DNA of 64,000 bases, from assembly GCA_041649475.1 (NCBI GenBank), contig JBAZNA010000001.1:24895-88894 (forward strand). Reading direction: 5' to 3'. Within the stretch, counting starts at the first letter, position 1; each line of letters starts with the position of its first letter. The translations under genes were made by a program, and so were the position numbers. Below, in pieces: positions 8,958 to 56,421 of the stretch. The DNA comes from Patescibacteria group bacterium (GTDB lineage: Bacteria > Patescibacteriota > Patescibacteriia > Magasanikbacterales > GWA2-37-8). Under the pieces are notes generated by a model that did no database searches, had not been told where the DNA came from, and was given only the letters and a program-made list of their open reading frames with translations.

Positions 8958-9062
<105 letters not shown>

Positions 9063-9124
9063 AGACAATGGTCTTTTTTAAATTTTTAAAACATTGGCAT
9101 TGAACAGTCAACAATGGATATAAG

Positions 9125-12150
<3,026 letters not shown>

Positions 12151-13497: not shown

Positions 13498-14169
13498 TTA
13501 ATTACGGCTATTTTCTTGTTGTCTCAAAAATTCTTTTGCCCGGCTATACTTTCTTTCCAAACTAGCCGGAAAACGTGAATAGTATAACAAATCTACTAAT
13601 TTTGTCGAGTCCCTCTTGGCATAAGCAAGCACATGTATACCACCACCAACAGTAAAATATCCTTTTATACCATCTTTTTCAGTCATACTTTTTACCCAAA
13701 CCAAAAAAGGTTTACTGGCCGAAACTAAACGAATTCTAAATTGTGGAAGCTTGCTTTCAGGATGCCTAAAAGAATCAATGGTGCCGTCGCCGTCTATACA
13801 CCCTCTTAAAAAATCATAGAAATACTTATCTGGAATATTCAACTCTCCTAAAGTTTTAGATTTCTTTGGCATCAACCCAATACTCAATAAAAATTTATAA
13901 AATAAAACATCCCCAAATTGTATGACATAATAATTTCTATCTTTCCTGCCATAACCGCATTTGCTTTTGATACCAATTTTATTACTCAGCCCCAAATATT
14001 TTTTATACAACTCTATAAAATCTAAATCCTTAGACGTAAAACTAATATGTCTGCCATCTGTAGACAAATTTCCGTCAGTCACAATCAAACCTATAACATA
14101 GGCAAACTCCGGTGACCATTCAATTTTTACTTTTGCGAGTGGTTTCATGTCAGAATCATACCACAGCAA
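13498..14169 (-). CDS. Free-standing double-motif LAGLIDADG homing endonuclease
   Basis: Two LAGLIDADG motifs are read: YVIGLIVTDGNL and FLRGCIDGDGTI, about 100 aa apart. 223 aa. The ORF stop abuts the 5' end of tRNA-Leu. Confidence 0.75.
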   Translation of the reverse strand: MLWYDSDMKPLAKVKIEWSPEFAYVIGLIVTDGNLSTDGRHISFTSKDLDFIELYKKYLGLSNKIGIKSKCGYGRKDRNYYVIQFGDVLFYKFLLSIGLMPKKSKTLGELNIPDKYFYDFLRGCIDGDGTIDSFRHPESKLPQFRIRLVSASKPFLVWVKSMTEKDGIKGYFTVGGGIHVLAYAKRDSTKLVDLLYYSRFPASLERKYSRAKEFLRQQENSRN

Positions 14170-17567: not shown

Positions 17568-17933
17568 TTACTTTACCGCCAGCCGACTGATTACAAAGTT
17601 AGAAATTGCATACGCGGCCAATATAATTATCAGACCAATAATGCCGGCCTCCAGGGCGTTTTTTGCTTTCTTGGCATATTCTTCATTACCGCGCGCAGTC
17701 ATCCACCTGAAACCGGTGTAAAACATAATTCCTAAAAAAACGATCGCCAGCAGGGCTAAAAACAGGTTTATTCCTTGACCCACAAATGTGTAAACATCTG
17801 ATTGCTGGTATCCGGCCTTAGACGCGGTCTGACCCAGACCATATTGGGCCAAGGCCGGCACCGCAAACATAAACAGAAGTGGTATAATAAATATAACCAT
17901 TTTTTTAGCTATCTTTTTAGGCATATTTAACAA
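17568..17933 (-). CDS. TrbC/VirB2-like (T4SS-type) pilin-family small membrane protein, paralog 1 of 9
   Basis: Signal peptide, two TM helices and the family loop motif YTGFRWMTARGNEE...KK. Confidence 0.6.
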   Translation of the reverse strand: MLNMPKKIAKKMVIFIIPLLFMFAVPALAQYGLGQTASKAGYQQSDVYTFVGQGINLFLALLAIVFLGIMFYTGFRWMTARGNEEYAKKAKNALEAGIIGLIIILAAYAISNFVISRLAVK

Positions 17934-17959
17934 ATACTTGGTTTAAGTCGCGGTTATTA

Positions 17960-17988
17960 TAGCACATCTTGATTTTTTCGTAAAAATA
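17960..17988 (+). promoter_or_regulatory. Sigma70 promoter (TTGATT, 17-nt spacer, TATAAT) for the tRNA-Arg/tRNA-His pair
   Basis: Read directly. It lies about 28 nt upstream of tRNA-Arg. Confidence 0.6.
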
Positions 17989-18015
17989 AGGTATAATATG
18001 TCTGCTTTAAATATC

Positions 18016-18087
18016 GGCCCCGTAGTTCAATGGATAAAACACCGGCCTTCTAAGTCGGATATCTAGGTTCGATTCCTAGCGGGGTCA
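18016..18087 (+). tRNA. tRNA-Arg (anticodon TCT)
   Basis: Acceptor GGCCCCG/CGGGGTC (one G-U pair), anticodon loop CTTCTAA, T-arm CTAGG-TTCGATT-CCTAG. Confidence 0.75.
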
Positions 18088-18112
18088 CTGGATAATTATT
18101 TATCCTAAACAT

Positions 18113-18188
18113 GGTGTCCATGGTATAACGGTTATTACGTCGGTTTGTGGTACCGACAATCTGGGTTCAACTCCCAGTGGACACCCCA
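18113..18188 (+). tRNA. tRNA-His (anticodon GTG) with encoded G-1 and 3' CCA
   Basis: Extra 5' G pairs with discriminator C73. Anticodon stem TCGGT/ACCGA with loop TTGTGGT. CCA is present in the DNA. Confidence 0.8.
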
Positions 18189-18191
18189 AAT

Positions 18192-19280
18192 ATGGCCTAT
18201 TCAAAAAAACTGCTGATTGTCTCATGCTCTACCGGTTCAGGACACGGCCGGGCCGCGGAAGCCCTGCGGCTAAGCTGCCAAAAGTTATACCCCGATGTCC
18301 AAGCCCTGCATATTGACTTTGCCGACTATTCCAGCTGGATAGCCCGGGTTTCAATTATAAATTCTTATAATTTTTTTATTTCGCGCGCGCCCGGACTTTT
18401 CGGTTATATTTATAAATTATCAGATAATTTTGCCATCCAACCATTTTTTAAAGTTGCCAAATTTTTTCTCCGCCAGGGCGTGAGAAAATTTTTAAAAAAA
18501 CTGAAAGAATACCAGCCCGATCACATTATTTCAACCCATTTTCTGCCCCAGCTGGTTTTACCGATTGAATATCCAACTCCCATTGATGTGGTAATAACTG
18601 ATTATCACGCTCACCGTATCTGGCTCTCACCAAACACCAGAAAATTTTTTGTAGCTTCAGACCAGGTTAAAACCGAATTGGAAAAATTGGGAATAAAAAG
18701 TATTGTTTCCGGCTTGCCGGTGCACCCAAAATTTTTTAGGGAAAGAGACACTCAAAAACTAAAAGAGGAATTCGGTATAAATAACGGTCTGCCCACTATT
18801 TTGATGATGCCCGCTTATCGGGGCGAACTTAAGGCCAAAGAGATTGTTAATACAATCTTTTCTTATGACAAAAATGTAAATGTAGTAGCCATTTCCGGCC
18901 ATAATAATGAGCGGGTCTTTGAAGAACTGGCCAACATAAAAAAGAGTGGACAAAAAAATCTGATTGTAATAAAAAGAGCGGAAAACATAGACGACTGGAT
19001 GCGAGTGGCGGATATTATTGTCAGTAAAGCCGGCGGACTGACTGTAACTGAAGCTATGTTTTTACAAAAACCAATAATAATAATAAATCCAATCCCGGGC
19101 CAGGAGGTATTCAATATGGAATATCTGATTAAGAGCGGTTATGGATTCGGAGCCGAGTCGTGCGATGATCTGGCTAAAAAAATTGAAAAAATACTAGCCA
19201 ATCCGGGCATAATCAAAAAACCGGCGCCTAGCCGGTCCAATGAAATAATTTTGACAGAGGTTCTAAAAAAAGAGGAATGA
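18192..19280 (+). CDS. GT28-family glycosyltransferase (MGDG synthase / UgtP-YpfP-like diacylglycerol glycosyltransferase)
   Basis: N-terminal LLIVSCSTGSGHGRAAEAL resembles the MGDG_synth/UgtP N-domain. The start was trimmed to the Met after tRNA-His. Confidence 0.55.
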   Translation: MAYSKKLLIVSCSTGSGHGRAAEALRLSCQKLYPDVQALHIDFADYSSWIARVSIINSYNFFISRAPGLFGYIYKLSDNFAIQPFFKVAKFFLRQGVRKFLKKLKEYQPDHIISTHFLPQLVLPIEYPTPIDVVITDYHAHRIWLSPNTRKFFVASDQVKTELEKLGIKSIVSGLPVHPKFFRERDTQKLKEEFGINNGLPTILMMPAYRGELKAKEIVNTIFSYDKNVNVVAISGHNNERVFEELANIKKSGQKNLIVIKRAENIDDWMRVADIIVSKAGGLTVTEAMFLQKPIIIINPIPGQEVFNMEYLIKSGYGFGAESCDDLAKKIEKILANPGIIKKPAPSRSNEIILTEVLKKEE

Positions 19281-19637
19281 TGATGTTGCGCCGGTTATTG
19301 CATTAAATACAAACCAGGTAATTGAATAGGACACCAAAATTATAGCCAAGCCAATCACGCTGGCCATTAAAATCTTCTTGGCTTTAGCAATATTATCTTC
19401 ATTGCCGCCGGCAGTCATCCATAAAAAACCGGCATAAACCGTAAGGACAATAAAAATTGTACCGAGCAACCCCAAGGCCACATAAATTATTTGAGCAACT
19501 ATCAAACGCGGATCAACCGGCGCGCCCAAATTTCCGCCTTGCATTCCGGCTGCGGCTTGGAGTTGTCTATTGGCTTCGGAACCTGGCCCGGAGCCGCCTT
19601 CATAAAAAATTTGAGCGAGAACTTTGTGCATAAACAA
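19263..19637 (-). CDS. TrbC/VirB2-like pilin-family protein, paralog 2
   Basis: VYAGFLWMTAGGNEDNIAKAKK motif between two TM helices. Confidence 0.6.
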   Translation of the reverse strand: MFMHKVLAQIFYEGGSGPGSEANRQLQAAAGMQGGNLGAPVDPRLIVAQIIYVALGLLGTIFIVLTVYAGFLWMTAGGNEDNIAKAKKILMASVIGLAIILVSYSITWFVFNAITGATSSFLFF

Positions 19638-19640
19638 TAA

Positions 19641-20237
19641 TTATGGGCAAGGATTGGCGCAGTTATTCCAAACACTGCCGCCATCTTTTATACATTGATT
19701 TTCCGCATTCACCCTTTGCGGATCTCCGGAATTAGGCAAATTAATGGCGCCGTAACTGGGATCGCATTGATGAGTGGTGGAAAAACAACAGCCCCTGGCC
19801 CCGTTTATTCCCTCAACAGTAGTTTCATCGTAACCGCCAACCACATTGCCTGTCGGCGAAGTGGCGCTATATAAATAATTAGTCACAAAATAGGTAATGC
19901 TGTACGCGGCCAGAACTATCACTAAGCCAATCACACTGGTAGTTAAAATCTTTTTAGCTTTGGTAATCGGCTCTTCATCACCAGCCGCGGTCATCCACAA
20001 AAAGCCGGCATAAACCGTCAGGGCTAAAAAAATCATCCCTACCAGTCCTAAAACTATACTAATAATCATACCAACGGTTTGGGATAGAGTTGTGTCTGTC
20101 ACACCCGCGGTTTGATAACCGCTCTTCTGGGCAATCTGGCTGGTGAGATCATTAATATTTGGGGCGGCCAAAACCGGCCCTGCCATTAAGGCAGAGGCAA
20201 AAATTATTGCTAATAAAATTTTTAAATAAATCTTCAT
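19641..20237 (-). CDS. TrbC/VirB2-like pilin-family protein, paralog 3, with C-terminal Cys-rich extension
   Basis: VYAGFLWMTAAGDEE core, plus a C-terminal domain of about 80 aa with 7 Cys (GCCFSTTHQCDPS...CIKDGGSVWNNCANPCP). Confidence 0.6.
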   Translation of the reverse strand: MKIYLKILLAIIFASALMAGPVLAAPNINDLTSQIAQKSGYQTAGVTDTTLSQTVGMIISIVLGLVGMIFLALTVYAGFLWMTAAGDEEPITKAKKILTTSVIGLVIVLAAYSITYFVTNYLYSATSPTGNVVGGYDETTVEGINGARGCCFSTTHQCDPSYGAINLPNSGDPQRVNAENQCIKDGGSVWNNCANPCP

Positions 20238-20248
20238 GTTACGAATAT

Positions 20249-20641
20249 TTAATTTGCCAAGCCGCTTGGATTTGAATTTGATACACTGCCACCCAATTTG
20301 GTAGTTACAAAATAGGTGATCGCGTAGGCCGACAAAACGATTACCAAACCGATAATACAGGTTTTTAAAGTTGTCTTGGCTGTCTCAATGCGCTTCTCTT
20401 CCCCGGCCGCGGTCATCCACATAACACCGGCGTAAATTGTTAAGCCCAAAAATACTGTACCAACAAGCGACAGAGCCACTTTGATAACATTAGCCACAGA
20501 GGTGGTGAGGTCAGATTGTAAACCGGTTCCACCGGCGGCTTTCTGCAGATTTCCGGTAGCTGCCCCAAGCTGGGCATTGGCAATTAAAGGTATACCGGCG
20601 AGCAAACAAATTGATATGGCGATAAGAAAAAGTTTTTTCAT
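20249..20641 (-). CDS. TrbC/VirB2-like pilin-family protein, paralog 4
   Basis: IYAGVMWMTAAGEEKRIETAK core. Confidence 0.6.
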   Translation of the reverse strand: MKKLFLIAISICLLAGIPLIANAQLGAATGNLQKAAGGTGLQSDLTTSVANVIKVALSLVGTVFLGLTIYAGVMWMTAAGEEKRIETAKTTLKTCIIGLVIVLSAYAITYFVTTKLGGSVSNSNPSGLAN

Positions 20642-20653
20642 ACTAAAAAAATA

Positions 20654-21418
20654 TTAATGACAATCTGCTGAACAATTACCACCTGTATAGTAAGCTTTCC
20701 CCCCAAGGTCAGTACAGGTCTGCTGATCAATCGCCGCACAATAATATCCACTCTGGCCATTCATACAACACTCTCCGGATTCAGGTGCAACCGGCTTATT
20801 GCATGGTAAAATACTCCACGACCCGCCGGTACACTGTTCTTCTGTCATCATACCAATCAAACCACCACTGGCATTACAACAATAGCCATTACCCGCCGGG
20901 GCTTGCCCGCCGGTGGGACATGGTCCCAAGACAAAAACACCACTACCGCCGCAGTCGGCCTGTGAGGCCACATTAACACCGTTTACTCCGGGAAAGGTAC
21001 AGCACCCGGCAGTATCATTTCCCGCCGGAGGGTTGCTTCCTGCGCCTCCTGCGCCCCCCGTAGTTCCGGCCACATTCTTAAACAAGAAGGTGGTAATCGC
21101 ATACGCTCCCAGAACAATCATAAGTCCAATCCCAGCCGCTTCCATTATGCTTTTGGCCGTGTCCACTTTCTTTTCATTTCCCAAAGCCGTCATCCATAAA
21201 ATGCCGGCGTAGAGAATCAACAGGAAAAAAATCACGCCCAAAAGCGACAGGCCCACTCCCACTACATTTCCAACAATAGAAGGGATATCAGTTCCCAATT
21301 TTGAAGTTTTTAAGTCCGACGGCGCGGCCGCCCCCAAACCATAATCATCAGCCAAAACTACCACCGGTATGGTTAGAATGCTTACAAGAGCCAAGACGAT
21401 AAGAAATTTTTTCAACAT
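20654..21418 (-). CDS. TrbC/VirB2-like pilin-family protein, paralog 5, with long Cys/Gly-rich C-terminal domain
   Basis: LYAGILWMTALGNEKK core, followed by about 140 aa with more than 14 Cys, including CC pairs. Confidence 0.6.
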   Translation of the reverse strand: MLKKFLIVLALVSILTIPVVVLADDYGLGAAAPSDLKTSKLGTDIPSIVGNVVGVGLSLLGVIFFLLILYAGILWMTALGNEKKVDTAKSIMEAAGIGLMIVLGAYAITTFLFKNVAGTTGGAGGAGSNPPAGNDTAGCCTFPGVNGVNVASQADCGGSGVFVLGPCPTGGQAPAGNGYCCNASGGLIGMMTEEQCTGGSWSILPCNKPVAPESGECCMNGQSGYYCAAIDQQTCTDLGGKAYYTGGNCSADCH

Positions 21419-21525
21419 ATAGATTATTCAATTGTCATCGCAAACGAACATGTTCACTTGAAATGACAGCAGAACAACTTCCGTCGCAGGGGGTTGCGCG
21501 CGCGAACCCCCTGCGAAGAAGAAGG

Positions 21526-21912
21526 TTATCCGTTAAACTGTGCACCTCCGGAAGTCGCTGAAACCAAACTGTTGATTACGTAAGTGGCCAAAGCGTAGGC
21601 CGCCAATATAATCGCTAAGCCAATTATACCGGAGAAAATCCATTTTTTTGCATCGCTGGTTTTCTCTTCATTACCGCCGGCAGTCATCCAAATGAAACCG
21701 CCAATTAAGATAATAACCACAGCCACGATACCAAGCAGTCCCATCGCGGTTCTAATGATTGACGCGACAGTAACACGGATATCCTGGTGACCTAAACCGG
21801 TTGCCGCTCCATATTGGATACCCAAATCTTGAGCTCCAATCGGAGTTTGAGCAGACACCAACACCGGTACTAATAGCGCTAGCATTCCAAAAATAACTAA
21901 CCATTTTTTCAT
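21526..21912 (-). CDS. TrbC/VirB2-like pilin-family protein, paralog 6
   Basis: GGFIWMTAGGNEEKTSDAKK core. Confidence 0.6.
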   Translation of the reverse strand: MKKWLVIFGMLALLVPVLVSAQTPIGAQDLGIQYGAATGLGHQDIRVTVASIIRTAMGLLGIVAVVIILIGGFIWMTAGGNEEKTSDAKKWIFSGIIGLAIILAAYALATYVINSLVSATSGGAQFNG

Positions 21913-21986
21913 AATCTCACCCCCTTTCCATTGATTGTATTTGTCATATGAAAATGCGTCTAAAAACGGCTATATTATACCACATT

Positions 21987-22439
21987 TTACTGCGGAGCTG
22001 AAGTCAAATATTGAGTGAAGGTGCTTAAGATGAAATAACTGGTGAAAACTAACATCAGCCCGATAACTGCCCAGAGCATTGTTTTTGAACCATTTTTTAC
22101 TCTTTCTTCGTTCCCTGCCGATGTCAGCCACTGAAAACCGCCCCAAACAAACATGAGCAGAGTGAGACCGCCAACCAGGCCCAAAGCGGCTTTAATTATA
22201 ATTTGAATTACTTGCGGCACGCTTGTGCTTCCACTTATATTAGAAAGAGGATTTTGTAAATTACAAACCGTAATCGGGGTTCCGGCTGCGGTTTTTGATT
22301 GAGTACAGCCGGCTGTTTGCGGAGTTGCTGCCGCGGGAGCGGCCAAAGCGATCACGGGAACACTTAAAAAAATAAAAAAGGATGTAACCCCTATAACTAT
22401 TCTAAAAAAAATTCTCATAAAATCACGGGTGTTAATCAT
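21987..22439 (-). CDS. TrbC/VirB2-like pilin-family protein, paralog 7
   Basis: WGGFQWLTSAGNEERVKNGSK core. 4-nt overlap with the next gene. Confidence 0.55.
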   Translation of the reverse strand: MINTRDFMRIFFRIVIGVTSFFIFLSVPVIALAAPAAATPQTAGCTQSKTAAGTPITVCNLQNPLSNISGSTSVPQVIQIIIKAALGLVGGLTLLMFVWGGFQWLTSAGNEERVKNGSKTMLWAVIGLMLVFTSYFILSTFTQYLTSAPQ

Positions 22440-22954
22440 TTAATCGCTTTAATCACAAAATTCACCAAGGTATAACTTAATAACATTACCAAAACCCCCA
22501 AACTTGTCCAAACAATAATTTTTTTGGCCGAGTCAATTTTTTTCTCCTCACCGGCCGCGGTCATCCATAATATTCCAGCCCAGATAAACAAAACCAGGGC
22601 GATTGAACCGATAAAAGCCATCATTAAACTGATAACTCGTCTAATTAAATCAGTGGGGGCTGTAAATTTTGCCGGATTCAATTGACTGGCTGCAGCACTC
22701 CTCAATTGATCGGCTGTTTTACCGCCTGTATTAATACCAGACGAAGCGGCGGGTTGTGCGGTTTTGTCACACGGACCACTTATTGGTTGTTCGCCGCATT
22801 TTGTACAGGCGTCCACTATGGACGCCGGATCTACTTTATTGCCGTCAAACTCCTGACAGGTCTTACAACAATGAAAAATATCCGCTTTAGCCGGAATTAA
22901 AAAAAACAAACTAGCCGCTAGCGCTAATAAATAAATTCTAAAATTAGATTTCAT
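22436..22954 (-). CDS. TrbC/VirB2-like pilin-family protein, paralog 8, with N-terminal Cys-rich domain
   Basis: HCCKTCQEFDG...CTKCGEQPISGPCDK before the IWAGILWMTAAGEEKKIDSAKK core. Confidence 0.6.
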   Translation of the reverse strand: MKSNFRIYLLALAASLFFLIPAKADIFHCCKTCQEFDGNKVDPASIVDACTKCGEQPISGPCDKTAQPAASSGINTGGKTADQLRSAAASQLNPAKFTAPTDLIRRVISLMMAFIGSIALVLFIWAGILWMTAAGEEKKIDSAKKIIVWTSLGVLVMLLSYTLVNFVIKAIK

Positions 22955-22961
22955 ATAAAAT

Positions 22962-23351
22962 TCACTTTACTCCCAAACTCGTGCTCAAAAACTGCACCAG
23001 TATATAGGCGCTAAACACAATAACCAAGCCAACTCCGGCGGCCATTATTATGCTCATGCCCTTTTTTACTTTTTCGGCATTCCCTTGCGATAAAATCAAA
23101 GTAAAGCCGCCATAAATAAAAAACAGTAAAGCCAGCGCGCCGACAATTCCAAAAACATAATTGCCAACAGTGATAAGCAGGGTGACAAAGACACTTACAT
23201 CCGCGCAGTCCCCGCTGGGCGTAGTTTGGTTGCCGCATTTTTGGATCAAATCCGAAACCGGATTGGCGGCTAAGGCAGACCCGGCCCCAAAAAACAACAA
23301 ACTGGCCATGATTGCCACAAAAAATATTTTTTTTAAATTTCGCTCACTCAT
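22962..23351 (-). CDS. Divergent TrbC/VirB2-like pilin-family protein, paralog 9
   Basis: IYGGFTLILSQGNAEKVKK variant core. The start was moved to the internal Met to avoid overlapping the upstream SBP gene. Confidence 0.5.
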   Translation of the reverse strand: MSERNLKKIFFVAIMASLLFFGAGSALAANPVSDLIQKCGNQTTPSGDCADVSVFVTLLITVGNYVFGIVGALALLFFIYGGFTLILSQGNAEKVKKGMSIIMAAGVGLVIVFSAYILVQFLSTSLGVK

Positions 23352-23356
23352 ATCGC

Positions 23357-24745
23357 TTATTGCGCAAAGGTTTGATTCATCTGCGAAGCCGCTCTGTTTA
23401 AAATTTCCTGCTGCCAACCCAGCGGGTCTTTGCTGCTTGGAATTGGTGCAAGCCATTGGTGGGTCATATCGCCCAAGCTCTTTACCGCACCATCATAATT
23501 ACGTCCTTTATACCAGCTATTTGCCACCAGCGCCTGCGAAGCAAACGGGAATAAAACCGGATTATCCAATTGTCCGGAAATATATGTGCGCAAAGCAGAA
23601 GGCCGCGCGGTTGTGTCCAAATAATCTTTAACCGCCTTTGAGTGGGTCAAATAATTCACTAAGTCCCAGGCCTCGTTTTGATGTTTTGATTTTCCGGTAA
23701 CGGTTTGGAGCCAATAACTAGCCGCGTTCACCGGCTGATCCGGGTTAAGCTGAAGCATTGGCAGAACATCAAAATTAAGCTGGGGCGCACGGGCTTTGAT
23801 GGTAGCGTAGTTAAAATTATAGCCAAAATAAAAAGCGAGAGATCCGTTTATGAAACTATCCAAAGCACTGCCCTTATCCTCGTTCCAAGAATAAACATCA
23901 CGGGTGGGATTGGCAAAATCAGTATAAAAATTCATAACGGACATAGCCGGTGACGATCCTTCGTTGACAGACGAGGCATTAAAAACCGCATAACCGTTTT
24001 GATCAACAAAACTCACGTTGCTCTGTTTGAACAAAATATATAACAAATCATCAAACCCGGGAATATTGGCAGCCGTGCCCAGCGCGGCTCCGGATTGTAA
24101 AACCGTGTCGGTCTTTTTATCAATCTTAGTTATCTTTAAGACCGCTTTGCGGAAATCATCCCAAGTTTTTGGCGGCTCGGCCACTCCGGCTTTGTCCAGT
24201 AAATCTTTATTGTAATACAAAGCCATGGTGTCAAAAGAAAGCGGCAATCCGTAAATTTTTCCACCAATCACAACATCGCTTTTAACCGCCTGCACATATT
24301 CTCTGTCTATTTGCGTGATATTCGGCAAAACAACATTAGCAGTATTTATGGTAGTATCTGTACCGCCAATCGCATTTTTTGTTACAGTGACGGTTGTGTC
24401 TTGCACCGAAGCAGGCATCGCCGCCAATTTTGTTTGGTAGACATGCATGTATTTATTTTGAACCGAAATAATATCCGGGCCCTTGTCTTCAGCCAGGGTT
24501 TCAACCAATCTTTGATAAATTTCATCCGGACGAAGCTGTCTTAAATTTATGGTCAAATACGGGCGTTCGGCTTTGAATTTATCTATATTCGCCTGCAGGG
24601 CATCAACATCATCATAAACTGTCCAGTATTCCAGGGTAACCGGCTGGGTTGCCTGTTGTTGAGCTGTAGACAAACCCTTGCAACCAAAACCCCCCAACAG
24701 TAAAACCGGGATTATAACTAAAAAAGGAAGAATTTTTTTAATCAT
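23357..24745 (-). CDS. ABC transporter substrate-binding lipoprotein (sugar-type SBP family 1)
   Basis: Lipobox LLLGGFGC at the N-terminus. 462 aa, with composition typical of SBP_bac_1. Confidence 0.65.
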   Translation of the reverse strand: MIKKILPFLVIIPVLLLGGFGCKGLSTAQQQATQPVTLEYWTVYDDVDALQANIDKFKAERPYLTINLRQLRPDEIYQRLVETLAEDKGPDIISVQNKYMHVYQTKLAAMPASVQDTTVTVTKNAIGGTDTTINTANVVLPNITQIDREYVQAVKSDVVIGGKIYGLPLSFDTMALYYNKDLLDKAGVAEPPKTWDDFRKAVLKITKIDKKTDTVLQSGAALGTAANIPGFDDLLYILFKQSNVSFVDQNGYAVFNASSVNEGSSPAMSVMNFYTDFANPTRDVYSWNEDKGSALDSFINGSLAFYFGYNFNYATIKARAPQLNFDVLPMLQLNPDQPVNAASYWLQTVTGKSKHQNEAWDLVNYLTHSKAVKDYLDTTARPSALRTYISGQLDNPVLFPFASQALVANSWYKGRNYDGAVKSLGDMTHQWLAPIPSSKDPLGWQQEILNRAASQMNQTFAQ

Positions 24746-25651: not shown

Positions 25652-27019
25652 TTACTTCACTTCCTGCCAACTAATCAAGTTATATTGCGAGCCGACCGGA
25701 AACCCGGGCGGCGGACCGTAAGTGAGATTGGCATCATAAGTGGAGTTTGTATTTCTGTATCCGGAAGTTATTGAGCCCCCGCCGGAAACCCAGCTCCAAG
25801 TCCAAATTTTCATGGATATAACCGAACCGTAAATCAGTAAATTTGTTTTCATGTCCCCCGGATAATAATAACGCTTGGCCGCGCCGTTTTGAGCCAAAAC
25901 AGCTGCGTCTATTTCCAAATCGTCCGGTGAATTGTGAGGGATTAAAATATTTTGATCGGCAATCAGACCCAAAACATCCGTACCGTCTTTGGCGGCATAA
26001 ATTATATCCCCATTTAAAATAATATTTTTACCGACCGAGGTGCCGACAACAACCCGGCCTTTTACAGCCCCGTCCACCCAAACATTATCATCAACAAAGA
26101 TATAACCATTGCTGGGCATATCATAAGTTGCGTATGACTCTTGAGTACTGATATCTATGCATGGCCAAAAATAATTATTGTCACCGACATCTTTGGCTTT
26201 ATAACAATCCGTTGTTAAGACCTTTGACACAATTACCTGTCCTTGGCTGGAAGAAGTGAATTGCAATCTCCAACCTTGCTGTCCGGAAGGGGTAAAGTTT
26301 AATCCGCCCAGATCCGGGTCTGAATTTGTTTCAATTTTGGCCAGATCGGCAGTGACCTCTGTAAAATCCTTGGCCGTAGCCGGAAAATCCCAATATGATT
26401 CGGGTCCGCCATCGCCCCAAATACCCGGTTTAACTTGACCTGCACCGCAACCATGATACTGCTTGCAGGTGTAAGTGGCCATGGCGCTGGTTATTGGAGC
26501 ATCACCGAGGCCGTCAAAACGGATTCCTCCATTGGCATGAAATTTTCCATGAGTCACTTCATCGTCTCCAATCCAAACATCAGTGCCGGTTAAAAAGGCG
26601 AAATCAGTCAGGGCCGGAAAACCAAGCTTCACTTTTATTTTTCTTTTTGTATTCGGCTGAATATCAAGCCAGCCGGTGGAAGTGACAGTGACGATGGTTG
26701 ATCCGGTTGGCGGCGGACCAATCTCCAAAGAAAAATGTCCGATTACATTTCCATCTTTGTCGGAATACGCGTGCACATACGGCCCGGGAGTACTTGTGCC
26801 GTTTCCGTCATAAAAATCTGTCTGACTATGAGCCAGGTGCCAGCGGTAATAATTAATGCCCGCGTCGGCAATTTGAAAAGCTACTTCCCGATTGTGTTTG
26901 CTTAGCGAAGCTCGGTTTTCAGAAATTGCATATCCGGCCAGACCAACCACAATGATTGAAAAAGCAATGGTGCCAAAGACCATGACAAAAAGTAAAATGT
27001 TTCCTTTTTTATTTAACAT
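25652..27019 (-). CDS. PilX-like type IV pilus-associated protein (N-terminal hydrophobic PilX_N-like segment)
   Basis: KKGNILLFVMVFGTIAFSIIVVGLAGYAI N-terminus. It is the last gene of a three-gene minor-pilin cluster. Confidence 0.45.
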   Translation of the reverse strand: MLNKKGNILLFVMVFGTIAFSIIVVGLAGYAISENRASLSKHNREVAFQIADAGINYYRWHLAHSQTDFYDGNGTSTPGPYVHAYSDKDGNVIGHFSLEIGPPPTGSTIVTVTSTGWLDIQPNTKRKIKVKLGFPALTDFAFLTGTDVWIGDDEVTHGKFHANGGIRFDGLGDAPITSAMATYTCKQYHGCGAGQVKPGIWGDGGPESYWDFPATAKDFTEVTADLAKIETNSDPDLGGLNFTPSGQQGWRLQFTSSSQGQVIVSKVLTTDCYKAKDVGDNNYFWPCIDISTQESYATYDMPSNGYIFVDDNVWVDGAVKGRVVVGTSVGKNIILNGDIIYAAKDGTDVLGLIADQNILIPHNSPDDLEIDAAVLAQNGAAKRYYYPGDMKTNLLIYGSVISMKIWTWSWVSGGGSITSGYRNTNSTYDANLTYGPPPGFPVGSQYNLISWQEVK

Positions 27020-27022
27020 ATT

Positions 27023-27640
27023 TTAATTATTTTTCAAATTCCTAAGCATCGCTTTTGATTCAATATAAAAAGGAGCCGGTGTTAAATTGGGATTCTGATC
27101 TAATTTTAAAATTATTCTGACAACTCTGATCTTAGTGACGTCAATTGGGCTGGCTAAGGGCGCTCCGGAGCCGTTATAATTACCGTCATAATAATAAAAA
27201 ACCGAAGTGGCATTGGCAAGTTCGTTGGCTACGTTGATTACGATTTCATTGACCGGATTATAAGTTAAGGGGTTGCCGGTTGGTTTGATGATACCCATCT
27301 TTAAGGTTGAAGTGACAGTAAAATAACGAAGACGTTCCACCAAACTATCGCTATCCGTATTTGAATAAAAAATAATTCCGGTGCTCGAAGCCGCCTGAAC
27401 CGGATAAGCGCCAATACTGGATTGCGAGGCGGTTCTGATTTGATTGACAAAATCCTGGGTGGCTTTCCGACCTTCATTTTGGGTAGAGAGCTGTTCCCAA
27501 ACAACGGAATTGTATCTGGAACCAGTCAGATATACGGCCACCACCGCGCCAACCAGTAGAACAAAAATACCCAAGGCCACAAGCACCTCAATCAACTGCA
27601 GGCCACGATTATCTGTTTGTATTTTTTTTAAAACAAACAT
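27023..27640 (-). CDS. Type IV minor pilin / pseudopilin (prepilin-type N-terminal methylation domain)
   Basis: NRGLQLIEVLVALGIFVLLV: G-x-x-L-I-E prepilin signal followed by a hydrophobic helix. Confidence 0.65.
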   Translation of the reverse strand: MFVLKKIQTDNRGLQLIEVLVALGIFVLLVGAVVAVYLTGSRYNSVVWEQLSTQNEGRKATQDFVNQIRTASQSSIGAYPVQAASSTGIIFYSNTDSDSLVERLRYFTVTSTLKMGIIKPTGNPLTYNPVNEIVINVANELANATSVFYYYDGNYNGSGAPLASPIDVTKIRVVRIILKLDQNPNLTPAPFYIESKAMLRNLKNN

Positions 27641-27642
27641 AT

Positions 27643-29439
27643 TTAAGAACTGGGTGACATATTAACCAAGGTTGATCCATTTCCGCTTATATCAATGGTG
27701 CCGTTATTGGTTGTGTAACCGCTCCGAGAAACATCCAAAGTATAGGTATCAACCGACAAACCGCTGAAAAAAACCTGACCGGGCGGTGTACAACTGGTGG
27801 AAAATGTAAAAGCTACTTCCGACAGGGTGGGTGTATAAGATGTGCTGGATGTATTTAAAAATACTTTATATCTAAAATAACGGTTATTATCGTTTCCGCT
27901 CCAAATCAAAGTATTAGTAGCTGTATAAAACGTACCGGCCGTGCCATCCGGCCCTTTATAACTCCAACTGCTGGGAGTACTGGTGTTGCTGGAAGCAAAC
28001 TGGAAAGTAACAGGATTGGCGCCGCACTGTGTCTGCGCAGAATACTTAAAAATTATATTATTAAAGTTTACTTGCGTGCCCAAATCAAAAGTAGAGGACT
28101 CCAGCCAGCCGTTATTGGCATAATAAAGTCCGGATTTCTTTAATTTTAAATCACCCGGATAAGAGCTGTAATTTACGGTTCCGCTGTCAGCAAAATATTT
28201 TTTTGGATTGGTAAAATTTATTTGCCCGCTGCCGCTTGACCAATCCGTTTGCCTGGTATAACCATAACCGGTTAAGACAGTGACATCATAACTAGTGCCC
28301 GTAAGTTCTACTGTCGCGTCTGACAAAGGCAACCCGGTGCCGGCATCAACCACATTGACCAAGAGAGAATTTGCAGTATGCGCCTGAAGAATAACTTTGG
28401 CATCCTGGGTCAGACCGGGATTAATAGCTAACGGCAACATCGGCATGGCTCCGGCTACATCATAACTGATTGTGCCGGTAGTGGATAGAAAATAAGTATC
28501 CCATTCAATGTTGGGAAAACTATAATTTCCGGAAGCGTCGGTTGTAAAATTTTTATTAAATTTATAAATATCCGGATCGATGGCAATTTTCTTGGCGCCT
28601 GACATGTTTAACCGAACACTGCCCAGAGCCGCGCAAGCCGTATTAATGGTATGCAGGGTTAAATTACTTAATCTGTCTATGGAAAAACTAATGTCGGTCA
28701 CGTCCTGACTGACCACATTGGCCGGCGGTTTTATGGGTGTGGGCGCGCTGGGGCCGGAGACCACTGTATAATCAGTTGAATAGCCCGGCTTACTGACATT
28801 TATATAATAACTTCGCGTACCGGTGGTTGTGTCTATGATGCGCAAATAGCCATCATTTCCGGTTGTATCATTTACTATAATCAAGGGTGTGCGCGCAGTA
28901 TTGGTCACAGACACATCCGCGCCCGCTACCGGCAAACCATCGGCATCAAAGACCTGGATAAAAAGCGCGCCGTTAACGCTGGCGCCTTCCAACTGTTTGG
29001 GGGCCACAATTGTACTTAAAATAACGGACGCTTGTTGTAAACAATTTTGACAAATAGCCGACATTTCCACCAACTTAAAATCCGCCGGAGACAAATCGTG
29101 GGGTGTGCCGCTCGCAGTGCCATCAAACGGATCATCTATGTTTCTGATGGTTGTAATCAGAGTAAATATCTCTCCATTGCGAACAGTGGTGGTGGTATGA
29201 GGCAAAACTCCGGCCGGCACGCCGCTTATAATACCGACGCTATCATAAGGAAGATTGCGCACGACTTCCAATTGCTCGGCCAAAATACCTGTTTCCAAAA
29301 TGCGCGTGCGCGATTGATACACGATTTTAAAAATCAAAGTGATGCCCCCATAGATGCCGACCGCGAATAATACAAAAATAGCCGTCGCCACGATGACTTC
29401 TATAAGCGTAAAACCTTTTCTGTTAAGAAGGATTTTCAT
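27643..29439 (-). CDS. Large (598 aa) type IV pilin-like protein with canonical prepilin signal (putative tip adhesin)
   Basis: N-terminal RKGFTLIEVIVATAIFVL is the textbook class III signal. A long S/T/N-rich ectodomain follows. Confidence 0.65.
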   Translation of the reverse strand: MKILLNRKGFTLIEVIVATAIFVLFAVGIYGGITLIFKIVYQSRTRILETGILAEQLEVVRNLPYDSVGIISGVPAGVLPHTTTTVRNGEIFTLITTIRNIDDPFDGTASGTPHDLSPADFKLVEMSAICQNCLQQASVILSTIVAPKQLEGASVNGALFIQVFDADGLPVAGADVSVTNTARTPLIIVNDTTGNDGYLRIIDTTTGTRSYYINVSKPGYSTDYTVVSGPSAPTPIKPPANVVSQDVTDISFSIDRLSNLTLHTINTACAALGSVRLNMSGAKKIAIDPDIYKFNKNFTTDASGNYSFPNIEWDTYFLSTTGTISYDVAGAMPMLPLAINPGLTQDAKVILQAHTANSLLVNVVDAGTGLPLSDATVELTGTSYDVTVLTGYGYTRQTDWSSGSGQINFTNPKKYFADSGTVNYSSYPGDLKLKKSGLYYANNGWLESSTFDLGTQVNFNNIIFKYSAQTQCGANPVTFQFASSNTSTPSSWSYKGPDGTAGTFYTATNTLIWSGNDNNRYFRYKVFLNTSSTSYTPTLSEVAFTFSTSCTPPGQVFFSGLSVDTYTLDVSRSGYTTNNGTIDISGNGSTLVNMSPSS

Positions 29440-30149: not shown

Positions 30150-33100
30150 CTATGAACACCCAGTGGTGCTTCCACAATTTAAACATTTATAACAACTCCC
30201 GCTTCTGATAGTTATATGCCCGCAAGTCGGGCAAGGCGGCGCATCGCCCATCATACCTGATAACTGTTGATTTACAGCATCAGCCGCTGCACCCGCAACC
30301 TCCTCAACCGGTTCAACTTTGGGAATGTTCGGAAGCGTGGCCTGTGTGCCGGAAGCATCATCTTCTTCGCGTATATCATCTGCCCCTAACTGCATAGTTT
30401 TTTGACCGCGCAATTCCGCTTCAATTTTTTCCATTTGCTCGGCCCGGTTCTTTTGAATGCCGGCCGGTTTCACCTGCACAAAATCCATTCTTCCCAGATA
30501 TTCCATCCCCAACACCCGGAAAATAAAATCTATAATTGAAGTGCAAAATTTAATATTAGGATGATCAGTGATACCGCTCGGATCAAATCTGGTAAAGGTA
30601 AACTTATCAACATATTCTTCCAGTGGCACGCCATACTGCAAACCGGTTGAAATGGACATAGCAAACAAATTGAGCAAGCTTCTAAATGCGGCTCCCTCCC
30701 TGTACATATCAATAAATATCTCCCCTAACTTTCCATCCGGATATTCACCGGTGCGCAGGAAAATCTTTTGCCCGGAGACCTTGGTTTTGATGGTTATCCC
30801 GCTGCGCTTATAAGGCAACCTTCTCTGCTCGCCATGAACATAAATCTTTGACCCCTGGTTGGTGCCATCATGCGCGTATTTAATCATGGCGTGCGTAGCC
30901 AGTACCGATACGGTTTCTTCTTTCTTTGCTTCTACTTTCTCTTCTTTTTTCTCCTCTTCTTTTTCTTTCTTATCACCCTTGCTTGATAGCGGTTGTGATA
31001 ATTTACTCCCATCCCTGTATAAGGCAATCGCTTTGAGTCCTAATTTCCAGGAAGCGATATAAGCGGTTTTGACATCGTCAATCGTGGCCTCATTGGGCAT
31101 ATTGATGGTCTTGGAAATTGCGCCGGACAAAAACGGCTGGACTGCGGCCATCATTCTAATATGCCCTAAATAATGAATATACCGCTGGCCCTTTTTGCCA
31201 TTTTTATTGGCCGTATCAAACACCGCGTAATGTTCTTTGCGCAGATGCGGCGCGCCTTCAATGGTCATAGCTCCGCAAACATATTCATTGGCCGCTAAAA
31301 TCTGTTCTTGAGTGAAACCCAAAGCGGAAAGCAAATTAAAATTCAGGTCATTATATTGTTCGCTGGTAAAACCAAGGCGAGTGAGACAATCTTCACCCAG
31401 CGTCCAGGCATTAAACGCAAATGGCAGTTCAAATACCATTGGCATTGATTTCTCCAATTTTACTATTTCTTCTTCAGTGAAACCCTTTTCTTTTAATGTC
31501 TCATGATTAATATGCGGCGCGCCTGAAAGAGTGCCCCGACCGCGCAAATAATTTATTATGTCAATCATTTGGCTCTCGGTATACCCAAGCACCTTTAAAG
31601 CCATAGGCACGGATTCATTTACAATTTTAAAATATCCGCCGCCGGCCAATTTTTTAAATTTCACCAGCGCAAAATCCGGCTCAACGCCGGTGGTGGCGCA
31701 GTCCATAAGCAAACCGATTGTGCCGGTGGGAGCAAGCAGGGTCACCTGCGAATTTCGGTAACCAAATTCCTGACCAAAAGCCAGGGCTTTGTCCCAACTC
31801 TCCTGCGCGGCAGAAAGTAAATATGACGGCACATACTGTGAATCTAAACCCATTGGCTTGACCGCCAAATTTTCATATTCATCTTCAGGGGCATTGTAGG
31901 CGGCACGCCGGTGATTTCTCATCACCCGCAACATATCTTCTTTATTAAGTTCATACTGCGCAAAAGGTCCGAGCAATTTGGCCATCTCCGCGGACGTGGC
32001 ATAGGACTCGGCAGTCATCAAAGCCGTAATGGCTCCGGCAATGCCCATGGCTTGCGGAGAATCATAAGGGATACCGGCGGTCATAAGCACACTGCCGACA
32101 TTGGCATAGCCCAGTCCCAAACTTCGAAATAGATAACTGTTCTTGGCGATTTCATAACTTGGAAATTGCGCCATTAAAATGCTTACTTCCAAAACAACCG
32201 TCCAAATTTTGGTGGTGTATCTAAAACCTTCAACATCAAAAGCCAAGGCCTCCGCGTCATAAAAATGGCCAAGGTTAATTGAGGCCAAATTACAGGCGGT
32301 GTCGTCTAAAAACATGTACTCACTGCAAGGATTTGAGGCCTTTATCCGGCCCGACTGCGGACAAGTGTGCCAATCATTTATATTGGTATCATATTGCAAT
32401 CCCGGATCAGCGCATGACCAGGCCGCGGTGGCAATTTTGTCCCATAAATTTTTAGCCGGCAAGGTCTTACAAACCTGACCGTTTATACGCCAAGTTAAAT
32501 TCCAGTCGCCGTTATTTTCAACCGCTTCCATAAAATCCTGGGTCACGCGGATGGAATTGTTTGAATTTTGTCCGGAAACAGTTTGATAGGCCTCGCCTTC
32601 ATAGGCAGAATCATAGCCGGATGAAATCAAAGCCGCCACTTTTTTTTCTTCATTCATTTTCCAATCAATAAACTTCTCAATATCCGGATGATCAATGTTT
32701 AAAATAACCATTTTGGCCGCCCGGCGGGTAGTGCCGCCGGATTTGATCGCGCCGGCCGCGCGATCGCCAATTTTTAGCCAGCTCATCAATCCGGAAGATT
32801 CGCCGCCACCGGATAATTTTTCTCCGGAGCCGCGCAAATTGGAAAAATTTGTCCCAGTGCCGCTGCCGTATTTGAATAACCTTGCTTCCCTGACCCACAA
32901 GTCCATAATTCCACCCGGATTTACCAGATCGTCTTTGATTGATTGAATGAAACAAGCATGCGGTTGATTGCGGGAGTAGGCGTCAGGCGACGGCATCACT
33001 TCTCCGGTGGCATCCTCAACATAGTAATGACCCTGCGCCGGACCATTTATGCCATAGGCCCAAAAAAGACCGGTGGTAAACCATTGCGGCGAATTTGGCG

Positions 33101-33569
33101 CCACCATTTGGGCGATGAGCATGTAAACTAATTCATCATAAAAAATTTGGGCATCTTGAGGGCTGGCAAAATAACCGTACTTTTCTCCCCAATATCGCCA
33201 GGTGCCGGCCAATCTATGGGCAACTTGCTTAATACTTTTTTCACTGCCCAAAACCGGCGAACCGCTTTCGTTTAATGTTGGCGTACCATCCGAATTATAT
33301 TGCGGTACTCCGGCTTTTCTAAAATATTTCTGGGCCAAAATATCCGTCGCCACCTGCGACCAGGTGCTGGGCACCTCAACGCTGGTCATTTCAAAAACAA
33401 TTTGCCCGCTCGGCTCTCTGATAACCGATGACCGAAGCTCATAGGTGAACATATCAAACGGACTGATATCGTCCCGGGTGTAATGCCTGGCAAATCGCAA
33501 ACCGTTCTCTACGTTATATTTAAAATCGCTGTCGGTTATATAGGTTTTGGTGGCCACGGCATTTTGCAT
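30150..33569 (-). CDS. nrdJ: Adenosylcobalamin-dependent (class II) ribonucleotide reductase
   Basis: RHYTRDDISPFDMFTYELRSSVIREPSGQIVFEMTSVEVPSTWSQVATDILAQKYFRKAGVP N-terminal signature. C-terminal Zn-ribbon CPTCGH...CYKCLNCG. The start was trimmed to MQNAVATK; the ORF is open to 33668. Confidence 0.85.
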   Translation of the reverse strand: MQNAVATKTYITDSDFKYNVENGLRFARHYTRDDISPFDMFTYELRSSVIREPSGQIVFEMTSVEVPSTWSQVATDILAQKYFRKAGVPQYNSDGTPTLNESGSPVLGSEKSIKQVAHRLAGTWRYWGEKYGYFASPQDAQIFYDELVYMLIAQMVAPNSPQWFTTGLFWAYGINGPAQGHYYVEDATGEVMPSPDAYSRNQPHACFIQSIKDDLVNPGGIMDLWVREARLFKYGSGTGTNFSNLRGSGEKLSGGGESSGLMSWLKIGDRAAGAIKSGGTTRRAAKMVILNIDHPDIEKFIDWKMNEEKKVAALISSGYDSAYEGEAYQTVSGQNSNNSIRVTQDFMEAVENNGDWNLTWRINGQVCKTLPAKNLWDKIATAAWSCADPGLQYDTNINDWHTCPQSGRIKASNPCSEYMFLDDTACNLASINLGHFYDAEALAFDVEGFRYTTKIWTVVLEVSILMAQFPSYEIAKNSYLFRSLGLGYANVGSVLMTAGIPYDSPQAMGIAGAITALMTAESYATSAEMAKLLGPFAQYELNKEDMLRVMRNHRRAAYNAPEDEYENLAVKPMGLDSQYVPSYLLSAAQESWDKALAFGQEFGYRNSQVTLLAPTGTIGLLMDCATTGVEPDFALVKFKKLAGGGYFKIVNESVPMALKVLGYTESQMIDIINYLRGRGTLSGAPHINHETLKEKGFTEEEIVKLEKSMPMVFELPFAFNAWTLGEDCLTRLGFTSEQYNDLNFNLLSALGFTQEQILAANEYVCGAMTIEGAPHLRKEHYAVFDTANKNGKKGQRYIHYLGHIRMMAAVQPFLSGAISKTINMPNEATIDDVKTAYIASWKLGLKAIALYRDGSKLSQPLSSKGDKKEKEEEKKEEKVEAKKEETVSVLATHAMIKYAHDGTNQGSKIYVHGEQRRLPYKRSGITIKTKVSGQKIFLRTGEYPDGKLGEIFIDMYREGAAFRSLLNLFAMSISTGLQYGVPLEEYVDKFTFTRFDPSGITDHPNIKFCTSIIDFIFRVLGMEYLGRMDFVQVKPAGIQKNRAEQMEKIEAELRGQKTMQLGADDIREEDDASGTQATLPNIPKVEPVEEVAGAAADAVNQQLSGMMGDAPPCPTCGHITIRSGSCYKCLNCGSTTGCS

Positions 33570-33760
33570 ATATTCCTGCTTATAGTATTTAAAATTAATT
33601 TTTACCACAATATGTAGTAAAAGGACATTGACAAAATACATTATATCATTTTTACAAGCCGGGCACAAAGATAATAAATTTTAGCTAAAATTGGCCTAAA
33701 ATCTAAATAAAAAAACTCATACTAGATGAGTTATCCACCGCCAAAAAATTGGCCTCAACT

Positions 33761-54960: not shown

Positions 54961-55548
54961 ATGATGAATATAAATTTGAATCTATTGCCGCCGCCTAAAA
55001 AATCCAGATTGGAATATGTGCTGAATTTTTTGATGACCAAAGATATATTAGAAATCGTTATTATTGTGTTCGCCACTCTGGCCATAACCTTAATCTGGAG
55101 CTGGATGATTTTGGAAAATCAATACGCTGACTTGGTATCCAGCGCCGTTTTAGTAAACCGCGATTCCTATTCATACAATAAAGACGTAAAAATTGTTAAC
55201 GACGCCGTTGGTGAAATAATCAAGATCAGCAGAGAATACGGCATTATCACCCCGAAACTTACCGAGCTTATTTCCGATCTGCCGCCCGATATTAAAATCA
55301 ATTCCATGCAGTTTGACAGAACAAGTCAAAATTTAATCTTATCCGGAACCGCCAAAACCAGAGAGGCGTTGCTTAATTTTCAAAGCAAACTCCAGAGCAT
55401 AACCTGGTTAAGCGGAATTGAAACACCCGCTTCCCAACTTTTTCAAAAAGAAAACATTAATTTTCAGTTTACGTCCGGTCTCAAGGGCTTGCCGCCAATT
55501 GGCAGCAAAGAACCATCCAGATCGGCCCCAGCAGATTCAGACCTATGA
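54961..55548 (+). CDS. pilN: PilN-like pilus assembly protein (single TM)
   Basis: N-terminal MMNINLNLLPP and one TM. Position after pilM. Confidence 0.6.
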   Translation: MMNINLNLLPPPKKSRLEYVLNFLMTKDILEIVIIVFATLAITLIWSWMILENQYADLVSSAVLVNRDSYSYNKDVKIVNDAVGEIIKISREYGIITPKLTELISDLPPDIKINSMQFDRTSQNLILSGTAKTREALLNFQSKLQSITWLSGIETPASQLFQKENINFQFTSGLKGLPPIGSKEPSRSAPADSDL

Positions 55549-56084: not shown

Positions 56085-56421
56085 AAAAATTAAAACACCA
56101 TTCCTGGTAACCTACACGGGCAAATACGCCTTGTGGAGATTTATTAATATAATTATCATGGGCGCGCTGATCGGCGGCGCTTTGCTCACCTATGTTTTTA
56201 TTTATCAAAACATCTATACTACCATCTCCAATACCTACGCCATCACCGAACTGAATGCAAATATAAACTGGACCACCCTAAATTCCCAAGATTATACAAA
56301 AGCGCAGGACATACTTAAACAAAAGGCGGAAATAAAACAAATTTCACGCACGATCAGAAATATATTTTCTTATGCCGGCTCATCAATACCAACCAGTTCA
56401 ACCAGCACAATCAGCCAATAA
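56071..56421 (+). CDS. Small membrane protein at the end of the pilMNO cluster (possible PilP analogue)
   Basis: 116 aa with one TM. Overlaps pilO by 14 nt. Confidence 0.4.
   Translation: MSANKKIKTPFLVTYTGKYALWRFINIIIMGALIGGALLTYVFIYQNIYTTISNTYAITELNANINWTTLNSQDYTKAQDILKQKAEIKQISRTIRNIFSYAGSSIPTSSTSTISQ

Follow-up and report, generated by a model that had tools for sequence, protein, structure and literature searches.

What do nine tandem pilin-like genes build, and which machinery handles their products? The question is raised by a 64,000-nucleotide (nt) stretch of DNA (the window; positions 24,895 to 88,894 of contig JBAZNA010000001.1) from a Patescibacterium related to Candidatus Magasanikbacteria. 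That DNA is chromosomal and falls within one 963,177-bp contig of an NCBI metagenome-assembled genome (locus tags WC526_*, proteins MFA50615xx), and an earlier interpretation of its letters by themselves (the sequence-only reading) had picked out nine minus-strand genes as paralogous TrbC/VirB2-like pilins, some carrying cysteine-rich ectodomains. We propose, with a probability of roughly 0.6, that the locus is a conserved chromosomal operon of nine VirB2-like pilins for which a type IV secretion system (T4SS) encoded elsewhere builds a filament or conduit, with gene 4 providing the bulk subunit and the decorated paralogs acting as minor, host-recognition subunits. The array as such has already been described in kind, and its disulfide-rich modules, position-specific conservation, and missing VirB4 linkage are a moderate, testable extension of that work and not a new system.

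All nine open reading frames (ORFs) are present in the window's ORF list at the coordinates first proposed (Table 1), and are numbered here 1 to 9 in transcription order; eight are contiguous and the ninth lies 1.3 kb off. They are paralogs sharing a two-helix hairpin core, 72 columns of which align without gaps across all nine, with pairwise core identities of 22 to 61% (mean, 38%), invariant G, G, G, and Y residues, and the shared motif YAGFxWMTAxGNEE..AKK. A hidden Markov model built from this core retrieves exactly the nine pilins among all window ORFs of at least 50 amino acids (aa), and whole-protein identity to gene 9, the first paralog aligned, is 24 to 41%. Intergenic gaps among genes 1 to 8, in order of ascending coordinate, are 3, 11, 12, 107, 74, −4, and 7 nt, with 1,329 nt to gene 9; the spacing first given, 3 to 100 nt with one 4-nt overlap, was thus essentially right (measured, −4 to 107 nt). 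The extent claimed for the array, to 23456, was too great: we place the start of gene 1 at 23351 because the alternative start at 23456 would overlap the upstream gene. Genes 8 and 9 are separated by an opposite-strand glycosyltransferase gene resembling monogalactosyldiacylglycerol (MGDG) synthase and two tRNA genes, and gene 9 has its own promoter-like site (17984-17956; TTTACG-17-TATAAT with an upstream TG).

That the genes are VirB2-like pilins, as proposed, is supported by Pfam. Eight of the nine pass PF18895 (T4SS_pilin; gathering cut-off, 26.6 bits) at 30.5 to 47.3 bits, and gene 5 is by its core a clear paralog despite a subthreshold 19.2 bits, being 42 to 49% identical to five paralogs and 29 to 36% to the other three. 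All nine also match NF045849, an 80-residue hairpin model, over nearly its full length (E 2e-10 to 5e-4), with only gene 9 at the cut-off of 40 bits (40.0; gene 7, 39.7; the others, 19.6 to 34). PF04956 (TrbC/VirB2; cut-off, 27.9 bits) gives near full-length, subthreshold matches to five of the proteins, and hhalign of a 19-sequence profile against VirB2 of Agrobacterium tumefaciens C58 brings the hairpin and the W-M loop into register over 61 columns (probability, 55.7%; E 1.2e-4). A tblastn search of 72,556 plasmids returned no match, and a profile search of PDB returned no pilin, only spurious designed 'Pizza' repeat proteins. The family is a large one, with 75,622 cluster representatives (50% identity) matching at E up to 1e-3.

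Hydropathy profiles show two hydrophobic segments joined by a short charged loop, preceded by a cleavable leader in eight of the nine proteins; a signal peptide had been attributed to all of them, which holds except for gene 8 (19263-19637). AlphaFold2 (AF2) returns a helix-loop-helix (helices 45-77 and 82-120; predicted local distance difference test [pLDDT] score, 84 to 93), and the connecting loop has three to four Lys or Arg residues, 2.3 times the Lys/Arg density of the N-terminal segment. From the Sec-type leaders with AxA cleavage sites, the two hydrophobic helices, and this charged loop we infer that the hairpin is N-out/C-out, with the basic loop (WMTAxGNEE..AKK) in the cytoplasm. Both N- and C-terminal extensions are therefore predicted to be extracellular, a location that fits paired cysteines; the Cys-rich parts do lie at these termini, outside the pilin core, as first claimed. 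MdbA-like oxidoreductase and VKOR are enriched in the candidate phyla radiation (bioRxiv 10.1101/335083), consistent with extracellular, disulfide-bonded extensions.

A scan of one genome per species, with a four-sequence alignment as the query, gave 79 related loci with 578 complete pilin ORFs. Most of these loci hold arrays of 5 to 16 genes, and the closest arrays are in metagenome-assembled genomes (MAGs) of Candidatus Magasanikbacteria, Uhrbacteria, and Parcubacteria. Each paralog of our array best-matches the same position in seven loci (L006, L007, L009, L011, L014, L030, and L059) and nearly so in about 10 further ones. Because ortholog identity (to 87% for gene 4) exceeds paralog identity, the nine genes are read as an old fixed set and not as recent duplicates; by these comparisons they belong to the VirB2-like T4SS_pilin family PF18895 as separate members that diverged long ago. 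The set belongs to a conserved syntenic block running through three type IV pilus (T4P) minor-pilin genes, an NTP-transferase gene, a solute-binding protein (SBP) gene, eight pilin genes, a glycosyltransferase gene, pilin gene 9, and genes for S15, NYN, and polynucleotide phosphorylase (PNPase). We note that L004, L005, L007, and about 35 other loci with this Patescibacteria-type synteny are titled 'MAG TPA_asm: uncultured Gammaproteobacteria bacterium', a label that looks wrong.

Position also governs the ectodomain. Genes 1 to 3 are decorated N-terminally, gene 1 with a small Cys pair, gene 2 with a large Cys-rich domain, and gene 3 with cysteines. Genes 5 to 8 are C-terminally decorated or bare, with Cys tails on genes 5 and 6 and, in most genomes, a short two-Cys tail on gene 8; genes 4 and 9 are bare. 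The modules had been called interchangeable cassettes, which is supported for their exchange on a conserved scaffold over evolutionary time and unsupported for exchange within one genome. Antigenic or phase variation, in which paralogs would be alternately expressed or recombined to evade phage or host defenses, might be suspected from the multiple divergent tandem paralogs, the hypervariable ectodomains, and the analogy to VirB2 paralogs of Bartonella and Anaplasma drawn in PMC12102498. Each position is nonetheless a separate ancient ortholog with its own conserved design, and the genes are packed as in an operon (gaps of 3 to 12 nt). Neither long identical DNA tracts nor inverted repeats flanking promoters are present, and the array is free of near-identical DNA repeats and of inversion or recombination signals, the only repeats being the diverged core motif (60 to 86% identity). 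Given this positional orthology and the lack of recombination signals, we think cassette switching within the genome very improbable.

The Cys-rich extensions are a general property of these pilins: 207 of the 578 (36%) have an extension with at least four cysteines, and cysteine makes up 6.5% of the tails and 0.2% of the cores. Cys counts are even in 124 of 125 tails with at least four cysteines and in 150 of 152 C-terminal tails with at least two, for which reason the extensions are read as fully paired disulfides. Core and tail are joined by linkers about 12 aa long that are rich in Gly, Ser, Thr, and Pro. In our array the three members singled out at the start do bear such modules, including the N-terminal one of gene 2 that begins with HCCKTCQ, and genes 1 (22962-23351) and 3 (21987-22439) must be added, each with one N-terminal Cys pair. 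The counts were slightly off, the tail of gene 7 (19641-20237) having six cysteines and not seven and that of gene 5 (20654-21418) exactly 14 and not more. No Pfam family matches the tail of any of the nine, and a word search with the gene 5 tail alone found no homolog; AF2 models this tail at a pLDDT below 50, too low for a usable model of its Cys-rich module.

These extensions turn over quickly between relatives, as judged from aligned orthologs, the cores of which are 57 to 69% identical and the extensions about 20%. The nearest homolog of gene 5 (P0001) is 86% identical through leader and core to the linker, beyond which the tails are unrelated. In a close relative (L085; glycosyltransferase 80% identical), Cys modules have been inserted, deleted, or replaced in genes 2, 3, 5, and 6 with cores 85 to 95% identical. 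Gene 3 there has an additional six-Cys module despite a core about 95% identical, and gene 2 has reached 18 cysteines via module insertions, compared with 6 in our array and 10 to 20, within 160 to 310 aa, among orthologs generally; the gene 7 tail is kept.

The same core is also found at the head of very large proteins. Nine loci (L054, 7157-15565; L061, 8045-19381; L040, 9839-11743; and L046, L058, L065, L067, L068, and L078) encode giant fusions, occurring as pairs, in which an N-terminal PF18895 core is followed by 500 to 3,050 aa with Big_5/TIG immunoglobulin (Ig)-like domains and 10 to 168 cysteines. The best-scoring database proteins (P0140-P0289) are single polypeptides with 2 to 17 pilin cores (P0145 has 17 in 1,775 aa); they could be genuine poly-pilin fusions, or else arrays that gene calling joined because the wrong genetic code was applied.

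Such proteins invite the reading that the PF18895 hairpin is a mere two-helix membrane anchor, displaying disulfide-rich or Ig-like ectodomains on a monoderm cell with no T4SS-driven polymerization. Fusion of the core to tails with Big_5/TIG domains and as many as 168 cysteines, the polypeptides with multiple cores, and the lack of VirB4 within 10 kb of any of the 79 arrays would suit an anchor, as would the lack of any reported pilus of PF18895 proteins (PMC12857230). An anchor, however, has no need of nine conserved, individually orthologous paralogs or of a strongly conserved cytoplasmic loop motif, and the bare members (genes 4, 6, 8, and 9) have no ectodomain to display. Elsewhere in Patescibacteria, moreover, pilin genes adjoin virB4 in 1,135 assemblies and are essential along with the T4SS (PMC12102498, PMC10633639). 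We regard a pure anchor as unlikely, yet it is the main rival to a T4SS-built structure, kept alive by the missing VirB4 linkage and the giant fusions.

If the proteins do form a heteromeric filament, gene 4 is the candidate major subunit, proposed as such because it is bare, is the most conserved position (its cross-genome identity of up to 87% is the best of all positions), and is followed by a conserved RNA hairpin. Strong structure (z, −4.4 to −10.2) recurs in the spacer at this place in 10 of 12 collinear loci, compared with weak or no structure in the spacer preceding gene 4 (z, +1.4 to −2.7); the spacer after gene 4 is a candidate attenuator or mRNA-stabilizing element. Gene 8 is the other unusual member. 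Its ORF, limited on that side by the preceding gene's stop, begins 3 nt after it and has no signal peptide, and the L085 ortholog (L085, 4502-4846) likewise has none, both proteins ending in FLFF/FFFF; in less closely related genomes the orthologs carry a leader and a two-Cys tail, the latter absent here.

The simplest candidate for the machinery that handles the subunits would be a VirB4-type T4SS encoded at some other place on the 963-kb chromosome, an answer that would accord with the presence of VirB4 in 2,417 of 3,035 (80%) Patescibacteria assemblies (PMC12102498). The Walker-A ORFs of at least 450 aa that lie within 10 kb of the related arrays encode PilB (three loci), EngA, FtsH, and similar proteins, and neither virB3, virB4, nor other mating-pair-formation genes were found in the window, in L001, or within 10 kb of the 79 arrays. 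Because no VirB4-like ORF lies within that distance, genetic linkage to a T4SS is taken to be absent in this clade. A homology search with PrgJ of pCF10 matched only Firmicutes VirB4.

Should the T4P machinery handle the subunits in place of a T4SS, PilB, PilC, PilM, and PilN would be at hand 27 kb away; no T4SS ATPase is near the array. The three T4P minor-pilin genes 2 kb upstream, a linkage kept in about 20 genomes, and a pilB gene within a few kilobases of the array in L044, L056, and L077 also speak for this idea. Prepilin peptidase and PilB-dependent assembly require a class III leader with the N_methyl motif, and none of the nine pilins yields an N_methyl (PF07963) match at E up to 1, whereas the neighboring minor pilins do. 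Our pilins instead have Sec-type leaders with AxA sites and a hairpin of two transmembrane segments, as opposed to the single N-terminal helix of type IV pilins. Since class III leaders are absent, we give assembly by the T4P machinery very little credence.

Several observations weigh against a T4SS-built filament. Families VirB4, VirD4, and VirB6 have no match among the scanned ORFs of the window, as first claimed, nor in the 10 kb preceding it (64 kb plus 10 kb), and none of the Walker-A ORFs of at least 450 aa found within 10 kb of the 79 arrays resembles VirB4. PF04956 stays below threshold in all nine proteins (best, 18.1 bits; E 0.003), and fold searches are nonspecific, the hairpin matching thousands of structures with no conjugative pilin among the top matches. 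Large terminal domains and fusion proteins of 600 to 3,185 aa are hard to pack along a VirB2-type helical filament, and the gene 8 product carries no signal peptide. The arguments for gene 4 as major subunit are two only, conservation and the downstream hairpin. Finally, no filament of PF18895 proteins has been observed experimentally, a pilus of this monoderm T4SS being called an 'intriguing possibility' in a December 2025 review (PMC12857230).

The pathway that we envisage under the T4SS reading is as follows. Sec would insert each protein, the leader would be cleaved at its AxA site, and the hairpin would come to sit N-out/C-out, with extensions that fold oxidatively outside the cell. A Patescibacteria-type T4SS (VirB4, TrsD, VirB3, and VirB6) encoded elsewhere on the chromosome would then extract the subunits into a surface filament or host-contact conduit. 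The gene 4 product would form the bulk of this heteromeric filament, and the decorated paralogs would be minor subunits, their variable disulfide-rich binding modules recognizing the host surface from flexible Gly/Ser/Thr/Pro linkers.

A broader and more tentative proposal, which we hold to be less likely than not, is that PF18895 pilins are a modular display system. An invariant two-helix scaffold would carry rapidly exchanged, disulfide-bonded recognition modules, as small as 20-aa Cys pairs and as large as 3,000-aa Ig-domain adhesins, and in Magasanikbacteria-type lineages the set would be fixed at nine nonredundant subunits, genetically uncoupled from VirB4 and coupled to the SBP, the glycosyltransferase, and the T4P minor pilins. 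If true, the pilins would make up a heteromeric organelle of host contact whose specificity is programmable and which may be assembled or used unlike any described T4SS pilus.

The sequence-only reading presented the system as new and open, which is overstated, as such arrays are published (PMC12102498, PMC10633639, PMC12857230) and the NCBI annotation already names genes 2 and 7 'pilin'. VirB2-like pilins are reported in 1,948 of 3,035 Patescibacteria genomes, with PF18895 and PF04956 among the profiles used, together with 441 arrays of 2 to 11 pilin genes and a within-array identity of 25% on average and 54% at most (Quinonero-Coronel et al. 2025, PMC12102498). The locus is an array in the sense of that study, namely at least two PF18895 or PF04956 genes in a Patescibacteria genome, in tandem or with one non-pilin gene between them. 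It resembles the published arrays in family, phylum, tandem organization with optional interruption, low paralog identity, chromosomal location, and the lack of a nearby relaxase gene. In Candidatus Southlakia epibionticum, the pilin series in the SEML1_0006-0019 region is essential and lies inside a T4SS cluster (Wang et al. 2023, PMC10633639), in contrast to our array and the 79 related ones, which have no VirB4 within 10 kb. In the open-access literature on Patescibacteria arrays we found no mention of Cys-rich N- or C-terminal modules, positional orthology, giant pilin fusions, a linked SBP and glycosyltransferase, or missing VirB4 linkage in a clade.

Comparison with better-known pilins is also instructive. 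Like the TrbC/VirB2 pilins of diderms (A. tumefaciens VirB2, RP4 TrbC, and F TraA), the nine proteins combine a signal peptide and hairpin with a positively charged loop and a mature core of about 70 to 80 aa. They differ in their monoderm host, in numbering nine paralogs and not one, in having no adjacent virB3 or virB4, and in scoring under the family threshold. Head-to-tail cyclization, which VirB2 and TrbC undergo, is incompatible with large disulfide-rich terminal domains. The proteins behind NF045849 (the Mbov_0395/MMCAP2_0565 family of pilin-like conjugal transfer proteins of Mycoplasma integrative and conjugative elements) share the hairpin model, a monoderm host, and an MPF_FATA-type context, but are single copy and borne on mobile elements, and only gene 9 reaches their cut-off. 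The modular type IV pilins PilB and PilC of Streptococcus sanguinis follow the same design principle, a conserved polymerization scaffold with a grafted variable adhesive module beside a bare major pilin, although their fold and machinery are unrelated, with a class III leader and a single N-terminal helix. The 'Pam pilus' (2026 preprint) was considered and set aside as a different system, with Ig-fold donor-strand-exchange pilins.

Directly upstream of the array is an orphan SBP gene with no ABC permease or ATPase gene nearby (Table 1). It is probably cotranscribed with the array, as it has the same orientation and its stop lies 5 nt before gene 1, and an SBP homolog adjoins the array in 53 of the 79 related loci. 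The glycosyltransferase insert is found at the same position in 31 of them. The three T4P minor pilins at 25652-29439 (about 2 kb upstream) are confirmed by PilX_N and N_methyl matches, the latter in 27643-29439 and 27023-27640. Of the T4P motor first described as complete (pilBCMNO), PilB, PilC, PilM, and PilN are confirmed; for the pair of small ORFs that follow pilN (55545-56421, plus strand), no family scores above threshold, and a weak, near full-length PilO match in 55545-56084 (E 0.031) makes the label 'pilO' plausible there.

Table 1. Pilin genes and associated features of the array (window coordinates).
Feature	Coordinates	Strand	Description
Pilin gene 1	22962-23351	-	129 aa (initiator Met, 23351); hairpin core preceded by a signal peptide and a short N-terminal ectodomain bearing one Cys pair; PF18895 44.4 bits; positional ortholog in at least 7 genomes
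Pilin gene 2	22436-22954	-	172 aa; hairpin core behind a Cys-rich N-terminal ectodomain (~75 aa, 6 Cys) that starts HCCKTCQ; PF18895 33.6 bits
Pilin gene 3	21987-22439	-	150 aa; N-terminal ectodomain with one Cys pair; 4-nt overlap with gene 2; PF18895 47.3 bits
Pilin gene 4	21526-21912	-	128 aa; bare, 0 Cys; PF18895 40.4 bits; AF2 hairpin, pLDDT 84-93
Structured spacer after gene 4	21419-21525	-	Two strong hairpins; minimum free energy −47.4 kcal/mol, z −6.1
Pilin gene 5	20654-21418	-	254 aa; after the hairpin core, a Gly-rich linker leads to a C-terminal tail (133 aa) whose 14 Cys fall in repeated CC...C...C modules
Pilin gene 6	20249-20641	-	130 aa; bare here, orthologs often with C-terminal tail of 4-6 Cys; PF18895 38.6 bits
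Pilin gene 7	19641-20237	-	198 aa; 71-aa C-terminal tail, 6 Cys; PF18895 40.2 bits; NCBI name 'pilin', MFA5061572.1
Pilin gene 8	19263-19637	-	124 aa; hairpin core, no signal peptide; PF18895 30.5 bits
Intrinsic-terminator-like hairpin and T run	19218-19238	-	After gene 8
MGDG-synthase-like glycosyltransferase	18147-19280	+	Pfam MGDG_synth and Glycos_transf_1; between genes 8 and 9
Pilin gene 9	17568-17933	-	121 aa; bare, apart from the other eight; PF18895 37.4 bits; NF045849 40.0 bits; positional ortholog at position 9
Orphan solute-binding lipoprotein gene	23357-24745	-	Pfam SBP_bac_1, E 5e-26; directly upstream of array

In gene content the window as a whole is ordinary chromosomal DNA, with 23S and 5S rRNA genes, ten tRNA genes, and genes for PNPase, S15, a class II ribonucleotide reductase, RuvB, EF-P, and SSB; the 10 kb preceding it holds genes for RNase III, NusB, FemAB, a cation ATPase, TopA, and a Mur ligase. 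Three further features deserve mention. A 2,503-aa protein (33761-41272, minus strand) has YadA_head repeats, LVIVD repeats, and a Peptidase_S74 (endosialidase chaperone) domain, and is giant adhesin or fiber-like. The 23S and 5S rRNA genes (8958-12125 and 13498-14169, both minus strand) have no adjacent 16S rRNA gene in the window, and a LAGLIDADG-type ORF is found some 1.4 kb past the 23S gene, immediately beyond the gene for tRNA-Leu. The 1,172-aa ribonucleotide reductase (30150-33668, minus strand) has its barrel domain in two stretches and a TSCPD domain, and may hold an intein or insertion.

Pilin arrays are essential in the sole species tested, yet no pilus or substrate is known. The locus described here offers handles on this problem, including a likely bulk paralog (gene 4), probable host-facing parts in the disulfide-rich termini where close relatives differ, and a clade-wide lack of VirB4 linkage. 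These would guide antibody or nanobody targeting, searches by cryo-electron tomography, and host-range comparisons.

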